DNA of 64,000 nucleotides, from NCBI GenBank assembly GCA_024640945.1, contig JAHEEA010000011.1, positions 10,576 to 74,575 of the forward strand. The letters are read 5' to 3'. Shown here piece after piece: positions 45,507-60,498 of this stretch (within the stretch, counting starts at the first letter, position 1; each line of letters opens with the position of its first letter). The notes beneath the pieces are model-generated. The model was not told where the DNA came from and did not search any database. It saw only the letters and a program-made list of their open reading frames with translations. The translations under genes and the position numbers were made by a program. This DNA is from Candidatus Methylopumilus sp. Its GTDB lineage: Bacteria > Pseudomonadota > Gammaproteobacteria > Burkholderiales > Methylophilaceae.

Positions 45507-47384
45507 ATGGAGATGAGCAAAATCAAACTAGCTCTAGGTTTAGTGGTTGGTGCATCATTGGCTATGCCAATGGTAGCTTCTGCTGCTGCTGATCAAGAAG
45601 CTGCATTGAAAGACGCTAACAACTGGGCACATCCACGTGGCCAACACAATAACCAAGGTTATTCAGCATTAGCACAAATCAACAAAGGTAACGTTAAAAA
45701 CGTTAAAGCTGCATGGACATTCGCTACTGGTGTAAACCGTGGCCACGAAGGTTCACCAGTTGTTGTTGGTAACATGATGTATGTACATACAGCATTCCCA
45801 AACAACGTTTACGCTCTTGATTTGAACGACAATCAAAAAATCGTTTGGTCATACTTCCCTAAACAAGACCCATCAGTTCAAGCAGTTCTTTGCTGCGACA
45901 ACGTTTCACGTGGTCTAGGTTATGGCGATGGCAAAATCTTCTTGCAACAAAACGACGGTAACTTAGTTGCTCTTGATGCTAAGACAGGTAAAAAAGTATG
46001 GTCTGTATTGAATACAGATCCAAAAGTTGGTGCTACAAACACTAACGCTGCACACGTGATCAAAGACAAAGTGTTAACAGGTTGTTCTGGTGCTGAATTT
46101 GGTGTTCGTTGCTTTATCGCAGCTTACAACATCAAAGACGGTTCATTAGCTTGGAAAGCATACTCAACAGGTCCAGATTCAGAAATGTTGATCGGTGCTG
46201 ACTTCAATAAAGCTAACCCACAATACTCAGCATTGTCTGTTTATGAAGATGTTAACGGTGGTAACAAACAAGGTGGTTCATTCAAGAAAATCGCTAACGA
46301 CAAATTAAAAGTTGGTGAAAAAGATCTTGGTACACGTACATGGTTGAAACCACAAGCAGTTAAAGATGGTTGGCAACATGGTGGTGGCTCTGTATGGGGC
46401 TGGTGGCCATATGATTCAAAAACTAACCTAGTTTACTACGGTACAGGTAACCCATCAGTTTGGAACCCAGACGTACGTCCAGGCGACAACAAATGGTCAA
46501 TGACTGTATTCGCACGTGACTTAGACACTGGCGTTGCAAAATGGGGCATGCAAATGACTCCACATGACGAGTGGGATTACGACGGTATTAACGAAGTTAT
46601 CTTGTTCGACAAAGGTGGCAAAACATATGCTAACCATATGGACCGTAACGGTTTCGTGTACACATGGCAAGCTGACAACGGTACTTTAGTTGTTGCTAAC
46701 AAAGTACACCCATTCGTTAACTGGGCTACTGATGTTGATTTGAAAACTGGTGTGCCAAACAAATTGGCTACAGCTTCAACTCACCAAGATTACAATGCTA
46801 AGGGCGTATGTCCAGCTGCTTTAGGTACAAAAGACCAACAACCAGCTGCTTACTCACCAAAAACTGGCTTAATGTACATCCCATTGAACCACGTATGTAT
46901 GACTTACGAACCAGTTGAGTCTAAATACGTTGCTGGTCAACCATGGGTTGGTGCTACATTAACTATGTTTGCTGGTCCTGATGGCGTAATGGGCGGTTTC
47001 ACTGCTTGGGATCCTATCAAAGGCAAATCAGTTTGGTACAACAAAGAGAAATTCTCAGCATGGGGTGGTGTATTAACAACTGCTTCAGACTTAGTTTTCT
47101 ACGGTACTCTTGACCGTTGGTTCAAAGCTGTTGATGCACAATCAGGTAAAGAACTTTGGAAATTCCAAGTTGGTTCTGGCGTGATTGGTAATGCATTCAC
47201 ATACGGTAACAAAGGTAAACAATACGTTGGCGTGCTATCAGGTATCGGTGGCTGGGCTGGTGTTGCGATGAACCTTGGTATGACTAACCCAACAGACGCT
47301 CTTGGCGCTGCTGGTGGTTATGCTGAATTGACAAAATACAACGCTGCTCCTGGCGGCGGTGCATTGAACGTGTTCAGCCTATAA
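45507..47384 (+). CDS. xoxF: Lanthanide-dependent PQQ methanol/ethanol dehydrogenase, XoxF type
   Basis: Signal peptide. Vicinal Cys-Cys (VLCCDN, TGC TGC at 45891-45896). Eight-bladed propeller W-motifs. WDYDG with the additional Asp (GAC 46581-46583) that distinguishes XoxF from Ca-dependent MxaF (WDYAG). No mxaI small-subunit gene follows. Confidence 0.9.
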   Translation: MEMSKIKLALGLVVGASLAMPMVASAAADQEAALKDANNWAHPRGQHNNQGYSALAQINKGNVKNVKAAWTFATGVNRGHEGSPVVVGNMMYVHTAFPNNVYALDLNDNQKIVWSYFPKQDPSVQAVLCCDNVSRGLGYGDGKIFLQQNDGNLVALDAKTGKKVWSVLNTDPKVGATNTNAAHVIKDKVLTGCSGAEFGVRCFIAAYNIKDGSLAWKAYSTGPDSEMLIGADFNKANPQYSALSVYEDVNGGNKQGGSFKKIANDKLKVGEKDLGTRTWLKPQAVKDGWQHGGGSVWGWWPYDSKTNLVYYGTGNPSVWNPDVRPGDNKWSMTVFARDLDTGVAKWGMQMTPHDEWDYDGINEVILFDKGGKTYANHMDRNGFVYTWQADNGTLVVANKVHPFVNWATDVDLKTGVPNKLATASTHQDYNAKGVCPAALGTKDQQPAAYSPKTGLMYIPLNHVCMTYEPVESKYVAGQPWVGATLTMFAGPDGVMGGFTAWDPIKGKSVWYNKEKFSAWGGVLTTASDLVFYGTLDRWFKAVDAQSGKELWKFQVGSGVIGNAFTYGNKGKQYVGVLSGIGGWAGVAMNLGMTNPTDALGAAGGYAELTKYNAAPGGGALNVFSL

Positions 47385-47438
47385 TTAATTGTTGAAAAAC
47401 AATTGTTATAGAACTAACCGTTAGTTAGTTTGTCATAT

Positions 47439-47468
47439 AAACACCCCGCTTCGGCGGGGTGTTTTTTT
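47439..47468 (+). terminator. Strong terminator/attenuator between xoxF and xoxJ
   Basis: Stem acaccccgc / gcggggtgt, ttcg loop, T7 run. Confidence 0.85.
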
Positions 47469-47510
47469 ATACCTAGATTTAATCATCTAACGGAAAAAAG
47501 GAATGATGAA

Positions 47511-48428
47511 ATGATGAACAAGCTTTTAGTATCGCTATTTATTGGCAGCGTAATGATAGGAACAGCGATTGCTGACGATACTATCGACGTGCCAGTCATT
47601 AACCCTGATGAAGGTCGTATCGGCGAAGTGCGCCGTGTTGAAGACCCTACCGAATTTAAAGTCTGTGCTGATCCAGATAACATGCCTTACTCAAATGCAA
47701 GACAAGAAGGCTTTGAAGATAAGATCGCAGCATTGATTGCTCAAGATTTAGGCAAAAAATTAAGCTTCCAATATGCTTATTACAGACAAGGTTTCTTAAG
47801 AAATACCTTGAACGCAAACCGTTGTGATGTTGTGATGAGTACAACTTCAGATAACGACACGATGTTGACGTCAACACCTTATTACAGATCAACTCACGTA
47901 TGGGTGTATCGTAAAGATAAGGGTTATAACATTACGAATTGGGATTCGCCTGATTTAAGAAAAGGCATCATTGGTATCGTGGGTCAAAGTCCTGCATCAC
48001 GTCCTTTGGCAGACCATGATTTAATGGGTAATGCTCGTCCATACCGTTTACAACGTGACTTACATTTACCACCAAGTTTCTTAGTGGATGATGTCGTCAA
48101 AGGTGATATTGATGTTGCTGTTGTTTGGGGTCCAATCGGTGGCTACTTTGCAAAACAATCTAAAACACCGCTTTCAGTGGTTCAAATTCCTGAATACGAA
48201 AATATCAACGTAAAAGGTAAAGAAAACTGGAATATCTCTATTGGTGTTCGTAGAAAAGACAAAGAACGCATGGCTATGATTAATGATGTGATTAAACGTC
48301 GTCAAGCAGATATCGATAAGATTTTAGATGAGTATGCAATACCACACATCCCTGTAGTACTTGGCGACAGTATTGAGAAAAAAGCGCGCGAAAAAGTACA
48401 GGGTGAAAAAGTAGATAAGCCTATGTAA
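47511..48428 (+). CDS. xoxJ: MxaJ/XoxJ-like periplasmic solute-binding-fold protein associated with quinoprotein dehydrogenases
   Basis: Signal peptide MMNKLLVSLFIGSVMIGTAIA and the FKVCADPDNMPYSN motif typical of the MxaJ family. The ORF-track start at 47430 would span the terminator hairpin and was rejected. Confidence 0.8.
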   Translation: MMNKLLVSLFIGSVMIGTAIADDTIDVPVINPDEGRIGEVRRVEDPTEFKVCADPDNMPYSNARQEGFEDKIAALIAQDLGKKLSFQYAYYRQGFLRNTLNANRCDVVMSTTSDNDTMLTSTPYYRSTHVWVYRKDKGYNITNWDSPDLRKGIIGIVGQSPASRPLADHDLMGNARPYRLQRDLHLPPSFLVDDVVKGDIDVAVVWGPIGGYFAKQSKTPLSVVQIPEYENINVKGKENWNISIGVRRKDKERMAMINDVIKRRQADIDKILDEYAIPHIPVVLGDSIEKKAREKVQGEKVDKPM

Positions 48429-48559: not shown

Positions 48560-49081
48560 ATGTTAGGCAACAAAGCAATTAAAGCAGCATTGATGGTTAC
48601 GCTTGTAACTTTGTCTGGTTTGCTACCTTTGCAAGCAAGTGCAGATTGTAAGTTTGTATCGACAAAAGATGGCAGTCCATTAGCTATTAAAGCAGTTGAT
48701 TCAGATACACCTGAAGCTAAACAATTTATAGCAACTTGTATCAATCCATACACTAAGAAGTTTGCTGAAAATAAAGAATTAGCAAATGCTGGTAAGAAAA
48801 AATTCGGTTACTGGTCATGTACCCAATGTCACGGCGGTAACGCTGGTGGTCAAACAGGCCCAAGTATTACTGATGCAACATGGCAATATTCTAAGCACGT
48901 GACAGACAAAGGTATGTTTGAAACGATTGCAGGTGGTTCTAACGGTGGTATGCCAACATGGCACAATCAACCAGCAGGCAATCCTGAATTGCTAAGCACT
49001 GATGAAATTTTAAAAATCATTGGTTGGTTACGTGTTGAATACAAAGGTGGTGGTGACACTCCTTGGTTAAATGACAAGTAA
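48560..49081 (+). CDS. xoxG: Periplasmic mono-haem c-type cytochrome, XoxG/cytochrome cL-like
   Basis: Sec signal peptide (..LQASA/DC). Single CTQCH haem site (48818-48832). Position in the xoxF-xoxJ cluster. Confidence 0.75.
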   Translation: MLGNKAIKAALMVTLVTLSGLLPLQASADCKFVSTKDGSPLAIKAVDSDTPEAKQFIATCINPYTKKFAENKELANAGKKKFGYWSCTQCHGGNAGGQTGPSITDATWQYSKHVTDKGMFETIAGGSNGGMPTWHNQPAGNPELLSTDEILKIIGWLRVEYKGGGDTPWLNDK

Positions 49082-49210: not shown

Positions 49211-49726
49211 ATGCAAAGACAATTAATTTTAGTATCGGCTTTGACGCTGGCCTTGCTTGCTAGCTGCTCTGGAAAGACTTCCGGCGATAGCTCTGCTAGC
49301 GGTGATTCAGTCAAATTTGTAACAACTCAAGATGGCTCAGCGATGGAAATTAAATCTGAGTTATTTGATACGCCAGCCGCTAAGGAATTTTTGGCGACAG
49401 GTAAGAATAGTTATGTTGGTAATGCCGATGCGGTTACCGCGGGTAAAAAGCTGTTTCAAATGTATTCATGCACACAATGTCACGGTGGTGATGCTGGTGG
49501 TCAAACTGGTCCAAGTTTGCATGGTCCAGACTTCAAGTATGCTAAAGATGCTACAAACAAAGGAATGTTTGAGACGATTTGGCACGGAACAAATGGTGGT
49601 ATGGGGGCAAAAGGTAAAGGTTTGATGGATCCGTCAGATCCATCAAATGGTTTAATGCCTGATGACGTATTAAAAATTCAGGCGTGGGTGCGTAGTCATA
49701 ACGAAAAACTCACAGGTAACGAATAA
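49211..49726 (+). CDS. Lipid-anchored paralogue of the XoxG-like c-type cytochrome
   Basis: Lipobox LLASC, CTQCH (49469-49483), and extended similarity to the preceding cytochrome (SCTQCHGG.AGGQTGPS...KGMFETI..G.NGGM). Confidence 0.75.
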   Translation: MQRQLILVSALTLALLASCSGKTSGDSSASGDSVKFVTTQDGSAMEIKSELFDTPAAKEFLATGKNSYVGNADAVTAGKKLFQMYSCTQCHGGDAGGQTGPSLHGPDFKYAKDATNKGMFETIWHGTNGGMGAKGKGLMDPSDPSNGLMPDDVLKIQAWVRSHNEKLTGNE

Positions 49727-54355: not shown

Positions 54356-55057
54356 CTATTCGAGTCTAAATGAAACAGGCACTAAAACATTAAATGGTTT
54401 TGATCTTAAAGCGGCAGGTGGCATTGGAAATGGCGATGCTTTTTTCACCATTTCTAAAGCTTGTTTGTCTAATGACTCAAAACCACTAGAAGTGTGAATC
54501 TTGGTAGATAGCACATTACCGCTGCCATCAATTTGAATGTCTACTGCAACATCACCTTGCCAGCCTCGCATTTGTGCGATTTTTGGATATTGCTTGTGCT
54601 TAGCAATTTCACGACTGAGCAAACTTCCGTATTGGTTACGAGAAGTGTCAATTTCTTCTTGATTAACGGTTACCGGTTTTGGTGGTTCAGGCGGTGGTGG
54701 TGGCGCTGTAACCGTTGGTTTTACTTCTGCTTTTGGTGCCGCAGCCATTACCGGTGGTGGAGGCTCCGCAACAGTCTCAGGACTCACTTTTTTCTCAACC
54801 ACTGGTTGAGGTTTCGGTATGACTTTAGGAATTGGTTTAGGCTCAACTTTAGGTTTAACGGGTTCTTGTTTTGGTTGAGGTTCTTGTACTGGCGTTGGTT
54901 GAGAAATCTCTACAGTCAGCACTTTTGGCGGTTCAAGCGGATCTTGATTAAATCTTGGCAGGTTAATCAGCGCGGCCAAATGCATAGCAATTGATAAGCA
55001 TAAAGCCCATGTGAATGCATGTTCGCGGTTGAATAAGCGTGAAGAGTAAGCGGCCAA
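54356..55057 (-). CDS. tonB: TonB-family energy transducer
   Basis: N-terminal TM anchor, Pro/Lys/Glu-rich rigid spacer, C-terminal TonB domain (YP..A...G.EG.V.V...I...G.V). TTG start. Confidence 0.8.
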   Translation of the reverse strand: MAAYSSRLFNREHAFTWALCLSIAMHLAALINLPRFNQDPLEPPKVLTVEISQPTPVQEPQPKQEPVKPKVEPKPIPKVIPKPQPVVEKKVSPETVAEPPPPVMAAAPKAEVKPTVTAPPPPPEPPKPVTVNQEEIDTSRNQYGSLLSREIAKHKQYPKIAQMRGWQGDVAVDIQIDGSGNVLSTKIHTSSGFESLDKQALEMVKKASPFPMPPAALRSKPFNVLVPVSFRLE

Positions 55058-55156
55058 AATTAAAAATGAAGCTAGATTAGTTGTTTGTTAATTGAATTAA
55101 ATTTGACGGTAATTATACATGATGCTTAATGCTTGCTATCGTTTTGTAAAGCTTGG

Positions 55157-56077
55157 CTACTCCCATTCGAGGCTGGGATAAATGTTATTCACATTGCGAC
55201 GATTTACAATATCAAAAAGTTGCCAATAGCTACGTTCTGAAGCTGCTGCGGTCGACATCGCTTTTTCCATCACTTCGCCTTTTTTAATACTGGCGCGAAT
55301 ATCATTGAGCAGCGTCCATAAATAGCGTTCTTCATTATTGAGTTGCTGTTTCCAGTTGCTATCTTTAAGTATGCTGCTATGCCCTGGAATTGCATTCTCT
55401 GCTTCATGGACTTTGAGTTCATTAATGACAGATAACCATCCTTTAATGTCACCATCAATTGATGGTGTGCGTTCAACAAATAGCAAATCTCCTGTCCATA
55501 GCGTTGAGCTTTTATTATCAAACACGGTTAAGTCTGTATTGGTATGGGCTGTCGGATATGAGGTAAGTAATAGCGTTCTATCACCCAGTTCCAATTTAAG
55601 CGTGCCTTTTACTAAAGCACTAGGCTTGACGATTTCGCTCCCTGCAAATGCATCTCCAAGCCACTGTTGATTAATGCGAAGATAGTTCTCGCGGCGGCGC
55701 TCCATGGCGTCAGGAAGCTTCTCGTGGCCAACAAAAATTGGTTTGTCTTGAAGGAATGCCGCATTCCCAAAAATATGGTCAGGATGCACATGCGTATTAA
55801 TGACATAAAGAATAGGTAGGGATGATACTTTTCGAATCGCTTCATGAAGTTGCTGACCAACTTTCAAACTGCCACCGGTATCAATGACGGCAATACCTTT
55901 GCTGCCAACAATGAAGCTTATATTGCAAATATCACCATGGTAATTTTCAGATAAGTCTTCATGCACTCCGTGGTGAACGTAAATGTCATGGTCTAGCGCT
56001 TCCATTTGTAATGGTGCAGCTTTAACTAAGCAACAAGTGAGTGTAAAAACAAAACCCAATAAGATACGTAGTGACAT
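55157..56077 (-). CDS. Exported metallo-beta-lactamase-fold zinc hydrolase (SoxH-like; quinoprotein-relay-type suspected)
   Basis: Signal peptide. THVHPDH (HxHxDH), later His (PTAHT), Asp (TGDLLF) and His (IPGHSS) ligands. Subfamily assignment is from memory of family descriptions only. Confidence 0.7.
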   Translation of the reverse strand: MSLRILLGFVFTLTCCLVKAAPLQMEALDHDIYVHHGVHEDLSENYHGDICNISFIVGSKGIAVIDTGGSLKVGQQLHEAIRKVSSLPILYVINTHVHPDHIFGNAAFLQDKPIFVGHEKLPDAMERRRENYLRINQQWLGDAFAGSEIVKPSALVKGTLKLELGDRTLLLTSYPTAHTNTDLTVFDNKSSTLWTGDLLFVERTPSIDGDIKGWLSVINELKVHEAENAIPGHSSILKDSNWKQQLNNEERYLWTLLNDIRASIKKGEVMEKAMSTAAASERSYWQLFDIVNRRNVNNIYPSLEWE

Positions 56078-56106
56078 GAGGAATTCCTAAATTTGAGCGG
56101 TATTTA

Positions 56107-56122
56107 TAAAATCATGATTTTA
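56107..56122. promoter_or_regulatory. 16-bp perfect palindrome TAAAATCATGATTTTA, candidate operator (Fur-family-like)
   Basis: Lies in the divergent MBL/cytochrome b561 promoter region. Shares the 13-mer AAATCATGATTTT with the site at 57795-57807. Confidence 0.45.
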
Positions 56123-56202
56123 ATGATGCGAGATTAATAGCCTAGCGCTATATAATAGCCCTGAGTGATTAGCTTAATCATACATGAGAACTAGGAGATA
56201 AG

Positions 56203-56826
56203 ATGAATAACAATCAGTACACCAAAACCGCCATTTTTTTACATTGGTTCATTGGTTTGGCAATTTTTGCGATGTTTGCGCTAGGTTGGTATATGGCAGA
56301 GTTGCCTAAAGATGCTCCTAAAGCCTTATCTTTTGATTTGTTTGATTTGGGCCTTTTTAATTGGCAAATGGCTGAAGAAGTTTCACCAAGAACATTTTAT
56401 TTTAATCTGCATAAATCAATCGGTATCACCTTATTGGCGTTGATTGTATTCCGTTTGGTTTGGCGCATCATGCATCGCCCACCTGCTTTACTCGAAAGTA
56501 TGTCAGCGGTCGAAAAGAAAATTTCAACAGCAGTTCATCATTTCTTGTATTTATTGATGTTTGCTTTGCCTATCAGTGGTGTGGCAATGGCGATTTGCAG
56601 TAAATATGGTTTGAAATGGTTTGGTGTTGCCTTAGTTGCAGGCTTAGATAGTGCTGCTTGCCGTGACTTTTATAAAGAAACCCATGAGGTTCTCGGTGTA
56701 GTGTTGTTGGTGTTGATTGCAGTTCACGTATTAGGTGCTCTAAAACATCAATTCATTCTTAAAGATGAAACAATGAGCCGTATGTCACCTTGTAAACTTT
56801 GGAATAATTGTTGCAAAAAGAAGTAA
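56203..56826 (+). CDS. Cytochrome b561-family di-haem membrane protein
   Basis: TAIFLHWFIGLAIFAMF with a conserved His in each of four TM helices. AGGAG RBS. Unusual Cys-rich tail SPCKLWNNCCKKK. Confidence 0.82.
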   Translation: MNNNQYTKTAIFLHWFIGLAIFAMFALGWYMAELPKDAPKALSFDLFDLGLFNWQMAEEVSPRTFYFNLHKSIGITLLALIVFRLVWRIMHRPPALLESMSAVEKKISTAVHHFLYLLMFALPISGVAMAICSKYGLKWFGVALVAGLDSAACRDFYKETHEVLGVVLLVLIAVHVLGALKHQFILKDETMSRMSPCKLWNNCCKKK

Positions 56827-56838
56827 CGAGATCTGAAT

Positions 56839-56868
56839 AAAAAAGGGCGCTTAATGCGCCCTTTTTTT
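56839..56868. terminator. Bidirectional terminator between convergent genes
   Basis: A6-gggcgc-ttaat-gcgccc-T7. Confidence 0.85.
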
Positions 56869-56884
56869 ATTGATTAAGAGGTGC

Positions 56885-57673
56885 TTAACGCACTTCTGTT
56901 TGTTGGCTAAACTCTTTACCTTCGTTGTCTGTTGCCTTTACTGCCAAGACACCTGGAGCTTTTGGAGTAAAGTTGAAGCGGAAGTAAGGATCTTCACTGG
57001 TGCCTACACCTATATCCACATCCATCACTTTTTCATTGTTATAAGTAAAAGCCGCTTTTTGAATGTAAAAAGCTGGTACAAAGCCTTGAGAAACCAAGTC
57101 GCGTTGTAAGCCGGTACGCATTGGGTGCTTAATCATAAAAGTGGTTTGCGTTGCCTCACCCAATTTCACTGGGCTTTCGACATTCAATTTGATTTTCCCA
57201 GCTGCAGCGCGAATCTCTTTTTCATCGCCATCTACAGTGCCGCCACATCCGCCAGCAGCGCGGATTTCAACTGAAGCTAAATACAATTTGCCATCAGCAG
57301 TTTCACCGACAGCACGAATGTATGAATCCATTTCCATGCGGATACGTGTTGATAACTTAAATTTACCAAGTTTGTCAGTGAGATGGTAAGTCGCTGTCAG
57401 TGGAATAGGGTTTGAATCCACTAATAGATAAATGGTTTTGATCGCATTAGCATCAGCTTGCGTTTGGTCTACCATCATTTCTAGAGGTACTTGCGCGCCA
57501 CTTTCTGCTCTGCGCGGTGCGGTAAAGCTAATGAAAGGCGCCTCTGCCATAGGGCGATCACCAAAGAAGCTTTCCCTCACTACTGGCCATTTCTTAGGAT
57601 CTGATTCAGCTGATGCTAGATTGCTGAACGCCATGAAGCTTAAACAGCCAATCAATAAGGTACGTTTAAACAT
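56885..57673 (-). CDS. Periplasmic SoxY-SoxZ fusion protein (SoxYZ-like sulfur/substrate carrier)
   Basis: Signal peptide. SoxY-like N-domain ending in AAGGCGG (Cys codon at 57245-57247). SoxZ-like C-domain with IKHPMRTGLQRD. AGGAG RBS. Confidence 0.75.
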   Translation of the reverse strand: MFKRTLLIGCLSFMAFSNLASAESDPKKWPVVRESFFGDRPMAEAPFISFTAPRRAESGAQVPLEMMVDQTQADANAIKTIYLLVDSNPIPLTATYHLTDKLGKFKLSTRIRMEMDSYIRAVGETADGKLYLASVEIRAAGGCGGTVDGDEKEIRAAAGKIKLNVESPVKLGEATQTTFMIKHPMRTGLQRDLVSQGFVPAFYIQKAAFTYNNEKVMDVDIGVGTSEDPYFRFNFTPKAPGVLAVKATDNEGKEFSQQTEVR

Positions 57674-57794
57674 GATTTCTCCTTGAATACTTTTTATTTT
57701 ACTTATCAGATAAGAATACTTGATTTGTGCATTAGTTCAAGGCTGATTAAAAGTTAATTACTGTTTTTCTGAAGATATTGTCATATTTTGTTAC

Positions 57795-57814
57795 AAATCA
57801 TGATTTTCATTATG
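57795..57814. promoter_or_regulatory. Palindrome AAATCATGATTT plus flank, candidate Fur-like operator upstream of the TonB-dependent receptor
   Basis: 12-bp perfect palindrome at 57795-57806. AATCATGATTTTCATTATG (57796-57814) matches GATAATGATAATCATTATC at 14 of 19 positions by hand alignment. Confidence 0.4.
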
Positions 57815-57856
57815 GCTTACTGATGCCTAAGTCATTAGTATTCACGCTTCTAAAAA

Positions 57857-60037
57857 ATGAAAATTTTAATAAAAATGAATAAAAAACTAATTTTTACCTT
57901 GATTTCAGGCTTGGCTTCAGCGCAGGCGTTCGCTGAAGCAAAAATTCAATTGTCACCAGTTGTCGTTACGGCAACTAAATCAGCTGTGAATAGTTTCGAT
58001 TTGCCAGTTTCTATTGATGTGGTGAATCAGAGTGATATTCAAGACGCTCAATTGAAAATGACTTTGTCTGAGAGTTTAATTCGTGTTCCAGGGATTACCG
58101 CACAGAACCGCTCTCAGTTTTCACAAGATCCTCAAATCTCAACTCGTGGATTTGGATCACGTTCAAGCTTCGGTGTTCGTGGATTGCGAATTTATGTAGA
58201 TGGCATTCCGTTTAGCATGCCCGATGGTATTGGTCAGCCAGGGAATATTGATTTAGGCACAGTTAAAACTATTGAAGTAATGCGCGGCCCGTTTTCAAGT
58301 TTGTATGGTAACTCTTCGGGCGGAGTTATTCAGTTATTAACTGAAGATGCACCCAAAACACCTGAAGTTAGTACAGAGCTACTCACTGGTAGCTATGGTA
58401 CTAACCGTCAAAATATTCGTGTTGGTGGAACAGAAGGTAATGTTGAATATTTGGTTAACTACTCAAACTTTGAAACTGATGGCTATCGTAAAAATAGTGA
58501 TGCAAAAAAAGAGCAGTTCACAGCGAAGTTGAAATTCAACTTCACAGATTCTACTAAGCTGACGATGTTAGCTAATTGGATGGATATGAGTGCTCAAGAT
58601 CCTCTAGGTTTGCCAAGATCTGATACAACTTCAGGCGATATGTTCCAACCATCAGCATTTTCTTCACCTAAGGGTGTTCCGAATGTTGCTCTTTTAGCTA
58701 ATACAAGAGTTAGCCGTAAAAATGAGCAGGTTGGCTTTAATTTGGAACATGCTTTTGATGAATCAAATTCTGTTAATTTGATTACAAGCATAGGCAAAAG
58801 AGAAAACACACAATTTCTATCTGTATATTCCTCTACAGGCACTTCAGCCCCAACGAACAGAATCGATGGAGGCCGGGCTAGTATTATTGATAGGGACTTT
58901 TGGAGTGGTGAGCTTAGATACAACCACAAGGGCTTAATTTTAAGCAGACCATATAGTGTTACTGCAGGATATAGTTACGGTGAAATGAAGGATGCGAGAA
59001 GCGATGTAACAGCATATGGTGGGGTTGTTCAAGATTCATCTAATTTAACTAATGTTAATCGAGATGAGAAAGATACTGCAAAGAACAATGATAAGTACGT
59101 ACAGGGTCAATTGTCTGTCTCGGAAACTTTTGATCTTCATGCTGGTGTTAGAAACACTAAAGTGAATATAAAAGTTGAAGATGGCTTGGTAAATTTAACT
59201 AAGGACTTTACTCAAGCATTTAATGCTAAATATCGTGATTCAAGTGGTAATTTAAGTTACGAAAAAACCACTCCTGTAGTTGGTGCAGTATGGAAAGTTA
59301 ATCCTGCTTTAAATTTGTATGCTAACTATGGTAAAGGTTTTGAGACGCCTAATCTAATTGAAATAGCGTATGACAATACAACTGGGACAGGTCCTAATTT
59401 AGGATTAAAACCAAGCGAAAGTGATAATTATGAACTTGGTTTTAAAGCATTTCCAAATGACACGACGAAGTTGAACGTAGCAGCGTTTAGAACAAACACA
59501 GATAAAGAGATTGTTGTTTCCCAATCAGGTGCCTATGCCGTATATAACAATGCTGGTAAGACTAAACGTCAAGGTTTAGAAGTTTCTGTTGATTCTCAAC
59601 TGCCGAATAATTTTGGTTTATATGGCGCCTATACATACCTAGATGCTAAGTTTGATTCAAGTTTTACATCTGCAGGAAATATTGTGAATTCCGGAAATTA
59701 CATTCCGGGAACATATCGTAATCAATTGTATGCTGAAGTTTCATGGAGAGCGCCTTCAGTTGGGTTCTATACTGCCTTAGAGGGTCGCTATAACAGCAAA
59801 GTGTATGTCGATGATAGAAATACCGAGAGTGCTGATTCATACGCAATTTTCAATTTAAGGACAGGCTTCCAACAAAATGTAAGTAATTGGCGTTTTAGCG
59901 AATTCCTTCGTTTGGAAAATATTACCGATAAAGAATATATTGGTTCAGTTCGTGTAAACGATGGCAATAGTCGTTTTTATGAACCTGCAATGGGTCGTGC
60001 ATGGATGCTAGGTGTTAATGCTAACTACCGTTTCTAA
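57857..60037 (+). CDS. TonB-dependent outer-membrane receptor
   Basis: Signal peptide, TonB-box-like PVVVTATK, plug domain (RVPG...RGFG...IYVDGIP), long beta-barrel, terminal aromatic NANYRF. An alternative start lies at 57875. Confidence 0.9.
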   Translation: MKILIKMNKKLIFTLISGLASAQAFAEAKIQLSPVVVTATKSAVNSFDLPVSIDVVNQSDIQDAQLKMTLSESLIRVPGITAQNRSQFSQDPQISTRGFGSRSSFGVRGLRIYVDGIPFSMPDGIGQPGNIDLGTVKTIEVMRGPFSSLYGNSSGGVIQLLTEDAPKTPEVSTELLTGSYGTNRQNIRVGGTEGNVEYLVNYSNFETDGYRKNSDAKKEQFTAKLKFNFTDSTKLTMLANWMDMSAQDPLGLPRSDTTSGDMFQPSAFSSPKGVPNVALLANTRVSRKNEQVGFNLEHAFDESNSVNLITSIGKRENTQFLSVYSSTGTSAPTNRIDGGRASIIDRDFWSGELRYNHKGLILSRPYSVTAGYSYGEMKDARSDVTAYGGVVQDSSNLTNVNRDEKDTAKNNDKYVQGQLSVSETFDLHAGVRNTKVNIKVEDGLVNLTKDFTQAFNAKYRDSSGNLSYEKTTPVVGAVWKVNPALNLYANYGKGFETPNLIEIAYDNTTGTGPNLGLKPSESDNYELGFKAFPNDTTKLNVAAFRTNTDKEIVVSQSGAYAVYNNAGKTKRQGLEVSVDSQLPNNFGLYGAYTYLDAKFDSSFTSAGNIVNSGNYIPGTYRNQLYAEVSWRAPSVGFYTALEGRYNSKVYVDDRNTESADSYAIFNLRTGFQQNVSNWRFSEFLRLENITDKEYIGSVRVNDGNSRFYEPAMGRAWMLGVNANYRF

Positions 60038-60120: not shown

Positions 60121-60498
60121 TTGGCTATTCTCGGTTTTAATCATTACAACTTACGTGCTGAGCGTTCCATGATGGAATTGCTGAAGGTGTTTTATCGTGA
60201 TGTAGTCGGGCTGAGCTTGGGCGAGCGCCCTAAACTTAGCAGCTTTGGATATTGGTTATATATCGGCAATAAGGATGTGTTGCATTTATCTGAAGCAAAG
60301 CCAGAAGAAGGGCGCCAGGAAAACGTGGCTACGACCTTTGATCATGTGGCATTTACGGCAACTGATTACGCGGGAACGCTTGCGCGCTTGGAACAACTTG
60401 GTATTGAGTTCAGAACCCGTAAAATTGAATCTGCAGGTCAGAAGCAAATATTTTTTACTGACCCTGCAGGTAATGGGATTGAATTGAATTTTCGCTAA
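60121..60498 (+). CDS. VOC-family (glyoxalase/bleomycin-resistance/dioxygenase fold) protein
   Basis: 125 aa with FNHYNL...HLS...FDHVAF...GNGIEL beta-alpha-beta-beta-beta module motifs. TTG start with a GGAG RBS 7 nt upstream. Confidence 0.78.
   Translation: MAILGFNHYNLRAERSMMELLKVFYRDVVGLSLGERPKLSSFGYWLYIGNKDVLHLSEAKPEEGRQENVATTFDHVAFTATDYAGTLARLEQLGIEFRTRKIESAGQKQIFFTDPAGNGIELNFR

Follow-up and report, generated by a model that had tools for sequence, protein, structure and literature searches.

The 64,000-nucleotide stretch of DNA analyzed here (the window), from the freshwater methylotroph Candidatus Methylopumilus sp. (Methylophilaceae), carries five adjacent genes that encode TonB, a type-2 SoxH-like zinc metallohydrolase of the metallo-β-lactamase (MBL) fold (MBL2), a cytochrome b561, a SoxY-SoxZ fusion carrier, and a TonB-dependent receptor (TBDR) of the PqqU family. 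A gene for a vicinal oxygen chelate (VOC) protein lies beyond the receptor (Table 1). An earlier note on this DNA had listed these six open reading frames (ORFs), five plus VOC, and all were found exactly where it had placed them. Its gene identities hold as well: profile searches gave matches to TonB_C, the MBL family, PF01292, SoxY plus SoxZ, and Plug plus TonB_dep_Rec. We tentatively interpret the locus as a neighborhood that supports a pyrroloquinoline quinone (PQQ) enzyme, with XoxF, the lanthanide/PQQ methanol dehydrogenase encoded nearby, as the presumed client.

The genes fall into four transcription units: MBL2-tonB (minus strand), b561 (plus), soxYZ (minus), and the TBDR gene (plus), possibly with VOC. 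Between them are two regions of divergent promoters and, where b561 and soxYZ converge, a terminator-like hairpin. The tonB gene follows MBL2 by 99 bp on the same strand, and the two form a probable operon. The second ATG (57875), where the orthologues begin, is the probable start of the TBDR. An island of XoxF, XoxJ, and two c-type cytochromes ends at 49726, 4.6 kb from the cluster, the distance that the earlier note had given. Its description of a lanthanide-type methanol dehydrogenase is borne out by the D357-Y-D359 residues of XoxF, which also has vicinal Cys129-Cys130. The end of XoxF is 9.5 kb upstream of the carrier, with four unrelated genes between, and xoxF lies 7-10 kb upstream of the carrier/MBL2 pair. 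The remaining annotated window is housekeeping (aspS, tol-pal, rpoD, dnaG, and moa/mob/moe genes), and no pqq, exbBD, or sox genes are among the annotated ORFs of the 64 kb. In an Rfam scan of 44-64 kb the cluster gave no match, and no riboswitch precedes the receptor gene.

Table 1. Features of the five-gene cluster and of the nearby xoxF island (window coordinates).
Feature	Position	Strand	Length	Evidence or remark
TonB	54356-55057	-	233 aa	TonB_C E = 5e-19; TIGR01352 72.5 bits, cutoff 27.1
MBL2 (type-2 SoxH-like zinc metallohydrolase)	55157-56077	-	306 aa	Lactamase_B 3e-23; TIGR04559 389.1 bits
19-bp element copy 1, AAATCATGATTTTAATGAT, palindromic core	56109-56127			MBL2/b561 divergent promoter region; candidate operator
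Cytochrome b561 (CybB-type, di-heme, membrane)	56203-56826	+	207 aa	Ni_hydr_CYTB E = 1e-31; PF01292
Terminator-like hairpin between convergent b561 and SoxYZ genes	56839-56867	+		12-bp stem, T-run
SoxY-SoxZ fusion carrier	56885-57673	-	262 aa	SoxY 3e-32, SoxZ 6e-29; TIGR04557 9e-73
19-bp element copy 2, AAATCATGATTTTCATTAT	57795-57813			SoxYZ/TBDR divergent promoter region
PqqU-family TBDR, predicted PQQ importer	57857-60037	+	726 aa	Plug 5e-19, TonB_dep_Rec 7e-49
VOC (glyoxalase-I-fold) protein	60121-60498	+	125 aa	PF00903 34.8 bits
XoxF-type lanthanide/PQQ methanol dehydrogenase	45507-47384	+		TIGR03075 619 bits, cutoff 480; presumed client of carrier/hydrolase pair
XoxJ-like periplasmic binding protein	47430-48428	+		TIGR03871 277 bits, cutoff 212
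Tandem XoxG/cytochrome cL-like c-type cytochromes (two)	48560-49081, 49211-49726	+		TIGR03872 87 and 89 bits, below equivalog cutoff 147.8

The carrier belongs to the NCBIfam family TIGR04557 (244.3 bits, cutoff 140), the SoxYZ-like family to which the earlier note had pointed. It is a single polypeptide in which the Pfam SoxY domain spans residues 34-143 and SoxZ residues 169-259. Its sole mature cysteine is Cys143, within AAGGCGGT, and G141-G142-C143 is invariant in five carrier alignments (A1-A5). Across ~125 diverse carrier representatives only GGC is invariant; the majority read GGCSAP and have an 'HPN' motif, and the window carrier falls in a small GGCGG/'KHPM' ('HPM') subclade. The GGCGG cysteine had been described as a swinging arm. 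Cys143 is confirmed, but the motif lies inside the polypeptide, in a loop that connects the two Sox domains and precedes a linker and SoxZ, rather than forming a free C-terminal arm. An AlphaFold model of the carrier (predicted TM-score, pTM, 0.81) has only two flexible internal segments, the Cys loop at 143-147, where the predicted local confidence (pLDDT) is <50, and a loop at 187-192 beside the conserved KHPM. Cys143 is thus predicted to sit in a flexible loop.

Could the carrier and hydrolase be a part, or a remnant, of a Sox thiosulfate-oxidation system? Both SoxY and SoxZ Pfam domains are present, the GGCGG motif is there with glycines flanking the cysteine, and the protein just passes the SoxZ_true model (77.4 bits, cutoff 76). 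The folds also agree, with Foldseek TM-scores of 0.82 to Paracoccus SoxY (2ox5_Y) and 0.81 to SoxZ (2ox5_C), and as in canonical SoxYZ/SoxB(SoxH) systems (2OX5, 4UWQ) the partner is a periplasmic metallohydrolase. However, the carrier scores far better against the fusion family than against the true-SoxY model (TIGR04488), where it falls outside (79.6 bits, cutoff 125); this was the profile check that the earlier note had proposed for canonical Sox placement. GGCGG is the free C-terminus of true SoxY, whereas here the Cys loop is tethered at both ends of one fused polypeptide. The N-terminal leader reads KR, not RR as in canonical SoxY, and the genomic partner is a PQQ enzyme. As the earlier note had remarked, soxAX, soxB, and soxCD are not found in the window. 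More broadly, SoxYZ fusions occur in bacteria that are unable to oxidize thiosulfate (PMC11237559). We rejected the canonical Sox reading on the true-SoxY score, the internal Cys motif, and the lack of sox genes among the annotated window ORFs, and regard its probability as close to negligible.

MBL2 is equally well placed. It matches TIGR04559, 'quinoprotein relay system zinc metallohydrolase 2', at 389.1 bits (cutoff 280, E = 1e-116), in agreement with the family name given in the earlier note, and scores 194.1 bits against the type-1 model, under the cutoff of 300. The THVHPDH motif, already spotted in the note, is at residues 95-101, and the metal-site residues are H96xH98xD100H101, H178, D197, and H233. 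The metal motifs are conserved in type-2 proteins of Thauera, a Geminicoccaceae metagenome-assembled genome (MAG), and a 3.26-Mb genome (locus L167), and MBL2 is predicted to be a zinc-dependent hydrolase with a binuclear metal site. It is related most closely to class B lactamases and chlorothalonil dehalogenase, and not to GloB, for which the match is weak (26 bits). The best PDB match is 48 bits, and the family is without a solved structure. The best 120 matches in the homology search are all 78-100% identical, and an AlphaFold model from a shallow alignment was unusable (pLDDT 46.6). Both MBL2 and the carrier have hydrophobic N-terminal leaders.

The receptor assignment is what goes furthest beyond the earlier note. 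Its best PDB matches are Escherichia coli PqqU/YncD (6V81, 9C4O; E = 1e-125), with the next family at 4e-21, so that a hundred orders of magnitude separate PqqU from any siderophore receptor. Its best NCBIfam family is NF041535 PqqU (535.6 bits, profile positions 2-675 of 676). Homology to E. coli PqqU extends over the full length (38-39% identity), and the plug has a candidate TonB-box-like stretch, PVVVTAT, located by eye. The signature of PqqU proteins is an aromatic residue at 99 with R304 and R365 (Munder et al. 2025, PMC12124388). By scripted alignment the window receptor has F99, R304, and R365; Q84, Q308, and Y481 are also kept, and N477 is replaced by Ile. Given this published PQQ-binding signature, the likely ligand of the receptor is PQQ, and not iron or a free lanthanide. 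The earlier note had suggested that some required ligand or metal enters by way of the receptor and TonB, and this can be narrowed to a prediction of PQQ. The host family has been described with a PQQ biosynthesis module; in the window there are no pqq genes among the annotated ORFs.

We note that E. coli pqqU neighbors yncE, whereas the window receptor is beside PQQ-enzyme accessory genes. In E. coli K-12 (L006 8964-12369) pqqU is divergently paired with yncE, which encodes a 7-bladed β-propeller protein. Propellers at the carrier locus of Methylotenera mobilis 13 (L013) that is associated with a PQQ alcohol dehydrogenase match the YncE model below its cutoff (95-109 bits versus 400), and a Thauera locus encodes a protein with a PF21783 YNCE domain. 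These YncE-like propellers are a second, independent hint that links PqqU to PQQ-enzyme accessory proteins.

To place the cluster in context we gathered ~160 loci in one genome scan and one metagenome scan and classified them by tblastn with 18 window proteins. The genome scan, made from an 8-sequence carrier alignment (A2), returned almost exclusively Methylophilaceae. Among named organisms Candidatus Methylopumilus turicensis is the closest relative, with a carrier of 83% identity. Three arrangements are seen within the carrier clade of the window. The window arrangement (A) occurs in 41 loci with the order moaA-mobA-mobB-moeA-(VOC)-(TBDR)-soxYZ-b561-MBL2-tonB-(sensor kinase)-bcp-phoH2-lplT-ndh-cytochrome c x2-xoxJ-xoxF. 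Eight loci, including that of Candidatus Methylopumilus universalis, keep this order minus the receptor (A'); VOC, where present, is 116-272 bp from soxYZ. In arrangement B (44 loci, mostly Methylotenera) VOC and soxYZ are co-directional between aspS and yjbQ/trhP.

The content of the slot between moeA and soxYZ varies. Of the 40 A-type loci with moeA visible, 19 have only the receptor there, 13 have both VOC and the receptor (in either orientation), 5 have only VOC, and 3 have neither. Thus, the receptor is present in 32/40 informative loci, and VOC is missing from 22/40. Two of the three loci with neither hold flhB-flhA: in the MAG loci L054 and L056 the moeA-soxYZ interval (at ~6.5-9.9 kb) contains these flagellar export genes, which identifies the junction as a hot spot for insertion or recombination in general. 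The retained set of SoxYZ, b561, MBL2, and TonB is nevertheless found even where the receptor has been lost, in Candidatus Methylopumilus universalis and OM43 (LSUCC0135) loci. These lineages are described as genome-streamlined (PMC10872708), and retention in such genomes argues that the pair, b561, and TonB matter.

Whatever else varies, every slot receptor is of the PqqU type and never of another TBDR class. The 43 slot receptors are 41-88% identical to that of the window, and the signature is kept at every aligned position but one, a Q308E substitution in a truncated copy (L143); four truncated copies do not cover all five signature positions. When the window was compared with L143, L148, L151, L152, L155, and L159, the carrier, b561, and MBL2 were 87-100% identical, yet the receptor alleles were 46%, 60%, or 88% identical and in either orientation. 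Such hypervariability among close relatives sets the window receptor apart from E. coli PqqU. The pattern resembles replacement of the alleles of a surface protein, with purifying selection acting on the ligand pocket. E. coli PqqU serves phage as a receptor, and for that reason the replacement could be driven by phage.

Outside the Methylophilaceae, only the MBL2 and SoxYZ-like pair is conserved, beside PQQ alcohol dehydrogenases. In Thauera sp. WH-1 (L168) and the 3.26-Mb genome, a type-2 MBL (359 and 403 bits) lies directly upstream of a GGCSAP-type carrier, with a PQQ alcohol dehydrogenase, a cytochrome c, and DUF3280 close by, and in Thauera an XoxJ-like gene too. In the Geminicoccaceae MAG a type-2 MBL (378 bits) is ~4 kb upstream, and pqqD adjoins the carrier. 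TonB, b561, and a receptor were not found near the carrier in any of these three loci. Also outside the carrier clade of the window, the nearest distinct lineage (g3, 36% identity) and the Methylotenera paralogues lie downstream of a different PQQ alcohol dehydrogenase and an XoxJ-like gene, with β-propeller and small unknown genes nearby; MBL2, b561, TonB, and receptor genes were not found near them. Because the distant loci keep MBL2, the carrier, and a PQQ enzyme without TonB, b561, or the receptor, these three are the conserved functional core, and the five-gene juxtaposition is a Methylophilaceae peculiarity, set in a block with equally conserved housekeeping flanks.

Some additional features of these loci were apparent. 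Of the three distant loci, two have the DUF3280 protein adjoining the carrier (L167 11228-11764 and L168 10874-11413); it is not encoded in the window cluster. A relationship to DUF3280 is also possible for three small ORFs without annotation that lie upstream of the Methylotenera paralogue (L013 8222-9893); these too are not in the window cluster. In Thauera sp. WH-1 a second SoxH-like MBL (L168 11515-12423), below both the type-1 and type-2 cutoffs, also adjoins the carrier; its HxHxDH motif is lost (TQPLQEFV), and it may be a pseudo-enzyme partner.

TonB is typical, with an N-terminal hydrophobic anchor, a Pro/Lys-rich spacer, and a C-terminal TonB domain; the note's Pro/Lys-rich energy transducer is thus seen both in the spacer and in the TIGR01352 match. 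In most Methylophilaceae an orphan HAMP-HisKA sensor kinase gene lies directly downstream of tonB (L005 13463-14923 in Methylobacillus flagellatus, where the gap is 12 bp), for which only profile matches to generic kinase families were obtained. The tonB-bcp gap is ~1550 bp in 27/41 loci and 133 bp in the window lineage, where the sensor kinase has been lost.

Cytochrome b561 matches PF01292 at 110.3 bits (gathering score 30.1), and its four heme-ligand histidines, conserved in orthologues, align with those of E. coli CybB, as expected for the di-heme protein named in the earlier note. CybB (5OC0) is its only PDB homologue and is of similar size, but the match is just 57 bits, and the score against the NCBIfam equivalog PRK11513 is 63 bits, under the cutoff of 170. 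The window protein further differs in an insertion of ~27 residues in the first loop (ELPKDxPKAxxFDLFDLGLxxWxxAEExSPRTFYF; 56305-56410, residues ~35-70) whose conservation among three genera exceeds that of the flanking membrane segments, and in the fixed position of its gene between the carrier and hydrolase genes in this lineage. The loop is a possible docking surface. The M. turicensis protein shares the Cys-rich tail at the C-terminus, CKLWNNCCKKK, which is not present in that of M. flagellatus.

The VOC protein, which has no recognizable N-terminal signal peptide as judged by reading its sequence, is the most persistent neighbor of the window carrier clade. In loci of the receptor-less (A') and Methylotenera (B) types the VOC-SoxYZ gaps are 115-416 bp, and the two genes move together as a module (e.g., L078 9475-10777). 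The window has its own aspS...trhP-like region at ~8-16 kb; the VOC-SoxYZ pair is not there.

Both divergent promoter regions of the cluster contain a 19-bp element with the consensus AAATCATGATTTT(A/C)AT(G/T)AT, at 56109-56127 and 57795-57813. The 64 kb contain no other exact site, and 0.3 would be expected even at 3 mismatches. The palindrome of the element is AAATCATGATTT. Its 10-bp palindromic core has 18 exact matches in 1.89 Mb of related loci; 8/18 are in the b561/MBL2 intergenic region of relatives, at the same position as in the window, and 2/18 lie immediately upstream of the slot receptor in lineages further removed (L052, L065). In M. flagellatus (L005) a one-mismatch copy of the core lies upstream of the receptor. 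We consider the element a candidate shared operator. Since the transcription units carry this common palindromic, operator-like element, they are probably co-regulated in this lineage.

Published work bears on the pair. A 2024 study of SoxY diversification (PMC11237559) reported SoxYZ fusions beside a PQQ alcohol dehydrogenase and soxH, or beside xoxF, and proposed that the fusions protect methanol dehydrogenase from thiosulfate; in Hyphomicrobium, thiosulfate inhibits methanol-dependent but not formate-dependent growth (PMC11237559). A 2026 review of the Pseudomonas ped cluster (PMC12997753) identified PP_2677 and PP_2678 as members of the same two families, noted Methylorubrum extorquens homologues near xoxFGJ, and raised the ideas of disulfide or cofactor maturation and of shielding PQQ from sulfur nucleophiles. 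These reviews agree with the earlier note that no biochemical function is assigned to the two families. The PqqU-type receptor, TonB, and b561 are not mentioned beside the pair in PMC12997753, PMC11237559, or the PqqU papers.

The known systems PP_2677/PP_2678 (Pseudomonas putida KT2440 ped), META1p1703-1705 (M. extorquens AM1), and the SoxYZ-S2/S4 plus soxH genes of lucinid symbionts comprise the same two protein families and are associated with lanthanide/PQQ alcohol dehydrogenases, XoxJ-like proteins, and c-type cytochromes. The window differs from these in that the pair is split by the oppositely oriented b561, is separated from xoxF by four housekeeping genes, and is flanked by TonB, the PqqU-type receptor, and VOC. 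The carrier is also of the GGCGG/'KHPM' subclade, not the GGCSAP/'HPN' majority, and a scan of flanking genes in the window gave no rhodanese match. The locus is therefore a lineage-specific variant arrangement of a known accessory system, in which the grouping is confined to Methylophilaceae and loosely held.

How might the components work? The carrier and MBL2 may serve XoxF as the same pair that accompanies PQQ alcohol dehydrogenases across Proteobacteria. We infer that they most plausibly follow a protect-and-reset mechanism, by analogy with Sox. The exposed loop Cys143 would capture a reactive periplasmic species that would otherwise inactivate PQQ or the XoxF Cys-Cys disulfide; the most plausible candidate is a sulfur nucleophile or sulfane sulfur, for instance sulfite or thiosulfate. 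MBL2 would then cleave the adduct by hydrolysis and reset the carrier, as SoxB or SoxH does on SoxY; in PMC11237559, SoxH is cited as substituting for SoxB in Sulfurimonas CVO, for sulfate release from SoxY. The PqqU-type receptor, energized by TonB, would scavenge or recapture PQQ across the outer membrane. Cytochrome b561, which is CybB-like and presumably quinone-linked, may give electrons to, or take them from, periplasmic thiol chemistry. Overall, this is a composite 'PQQ-enzyme support' neighborhood and not a single pathway: the pair, a PQQ importer with TonB, and b561, under probable co-regulation. We hold this reading at somewhat short of even confidence. A composite locus whose parts do not form one obligate pathway is the best-supported view, and the evidence for joint action of all five genes is weak.

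Several observations weigh against the composite reading. The 535.6 bits of the receptor fall below the NF041535 equivalog cutoff of 1200, and two PqqU residues are changed (K274 to V, R536 to Y); both positions are semi-conserved and are not used for PqqU classification by Munder et al. (PMC12124388). In the 44 B loci, MBL2, b561, TonB, the receptor, and a PQQ alcohol dehydrogenase are not found within 10 kb of the carrier, and in the loci examined outside the Methylophilaceae neither TonB, b561, and the receptor nor VOC are neighbors of the pair. The MoeA/SoxYZ junction is variable, holding VOC, PqqU, both, neither, or flhBA. The whole moaA-to-xoxF block is syntenic within the family, so that gene adjacency may be mere inherited order. 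M. turicensis lacks the 19-bp element. The P. putida homologues had minimal phenotypes in transposon sequencing with random barcodes (RB-TnSeq) without lanthanides (PMC12997753), and orthologues of the block are not listed among the induced proteins in the main text of the M. flagellatus lanthanum (La) proteomics. Given a slot receptor in 32/40 loci and a carrier relocated in 44, the notion of the earlier note that the five genes are one envelope cluster is not supported in that form.

The chief alternative is that only the carrier and MBL2 are partners, and that the receptor, TonB, and b561 are independent housekeeping envelope genes in a conserved block, the receptor sitting in a recombination-prone slot. 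The block is collinear throughout, including bcp, phoH2, lplT, and ndh; the variable slot content, and receptor alleles of 46-88% identity beside neighbors that are 87-100% identical, fit an exchange of alleles through the conserved flanks; TonB is retained in loci without the receptor; and distant taxa lack TonB, b561, and a TBDR adjoining the pair. Against mere synteny, the 19-bp element is common to both divergent promoter regions and has no other site in 64 kb, the b561/MBL2 region (8 loci) and the region upstream of slot receptors (2 loci) account for 10/18 exact core matches in 1.89 Mb, and all slot receptors are PqqU-type. We regard this explanation as unlikely but serious. A different possibility is that the receptor takes up a lanthanide, as in LutH/LanA-type receptors, or an iron chelate, and that the cluster is a metal-acquisition unit for XoxF. 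LutH/LanA-type receptors (e.g., Mfla_1253) share the broad TBDR clade and the methylotroph context, and according to a 2026 preprint they too are annotated YncD/PqqU with 6V81 as the best PDB match. The locus is near xoxF, one cluster member is labeled 'iron complex outermembrane recepter protein' by JGI, K274, whose amine sits at the metal position of PQQ, is Val in the window receptor, and the 19-bp element resembles the Fur box GATAATGATAATCATTATC, with 15/19 and 13/19 positions in agreement for the two copies. Yet the same preprint reports that the lanthanide receptors lack the PQQ-binding residues, which are present in the window receptor and kept in nearly all 43 slot receptors. In M. 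flagellatus, the La-induced receptor needed for the La response is Mfla_1253, a different gene at another locus, followed by a sigma-54 regulator, whereas the orthologue of the window receptor is followed by the SoxYZ-like gene, in a block that from gene order we take to be approximately Mfla_2301-2306. A strict search found no Fur-box site at 3 or fewer mismatches, and E. coli PqqU neither transports iron nor is Fur-regulated. Because of the reported lack of signature residues in the lanthanide receptors, and because the La receptor of M. flagellatus is another gene, PQQ is the best-supported ligand, and metal import appears improbable.

Two further readings would load the carrier with something other than a sulfur species. 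The earlier note had envisaged, as one option, an aldehyde held on Cys143 as a hemithioacetal or thioester, oxidized by the PQQ enzyme and released by a glyoxalase-II-like MBL; VOC would provide a glyoxalase-I-like step. The metal motif set of MBL2 (HxHxDH...H...D...H) is also used by glyoxalase II, there is the weak GloB match, and the model gains a little from the persistent adjacency of VOC and the carrier, which survives relocation (44/44 B loci and 5/8 receptor-less loci). It is weakened because VOC lacks a recognizable signal peptide, against the hydrophobic leaders of the carrier and MBL2, and is missing from 22/40 window-type loci and from the Thauera, Geminicoccaceae, and g3 loci. Furthermore, MBL2 is closest to lactamases and the dehalogenase, not GloB, and our literature search gave no precedent for carbon adducts on SoxY; we consider the model very doubtful. 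In the other reading, PQQ itself, brought in by the receptor or exported from the cytoplasm, would be held transiently on the carrier loop Cys as a covalent adduct at its reactive C5 carbonyl and delivered to apo-XoxF; the adduct would shield PQQ from periplasmic nucleophiles, and the hydrolase and b561 would reset the carrier or the cofactor redox state. Such a cofactor relay would have left its trace in the genome as the consistent presence of a receptor with the PQQ signature beside the carrier and as the operator-like element common to the units. We rate this proposal as a shade more doubtful than the aldehyde model, and the composite PQQ-enzyme support neighborhood remains the reading that we tentatively prefer.

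Nearby, the xoxF island has features of its own. The tandem XoxG-like genes (encoding 173 and 171 aa) downstream of xoxJ are followed directly by a gene for an NDH-2-type flavoprotein, and both copies are kept in several relatives. XoxJ probably has its true start downstream of the TTG that was listed. At 47351-47464 (plus strand) Rfam gave a sub-threshold match to rsmX (34.7 bits versus a gathering score of 56), which runs from the end of xoxF across the short gap into the 5' end of the xoxJ ORF as listed; a structured terminator or attenuator is more probable here than an Rsm small RNA.

In lakes and in the ocean, transcripts for methanol oxidation are dominated by those of the Methylophilaceae PQQ/lanthanide methanol dehydrogenases. 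The SoxYZ-like/SoxH-like pair, which accompanies such enzymes in many bacteria, is a defined family without an assigned function, and genetically tractable instances of this core pair are already known. To these the present locus adds new handles: the recurrent receptor with a PQQ signature beside the pair, the candidate shared operator that links the transcription units, and the retention of the pair, b561, and TonB in streamlined lineages. If only synteny is involved, the finding remains a correct annotation of the gene pair. If the PQQ link is real, the search for the function of the pair would shift from sulfur metabolism to the supply or protection of the cofactor.

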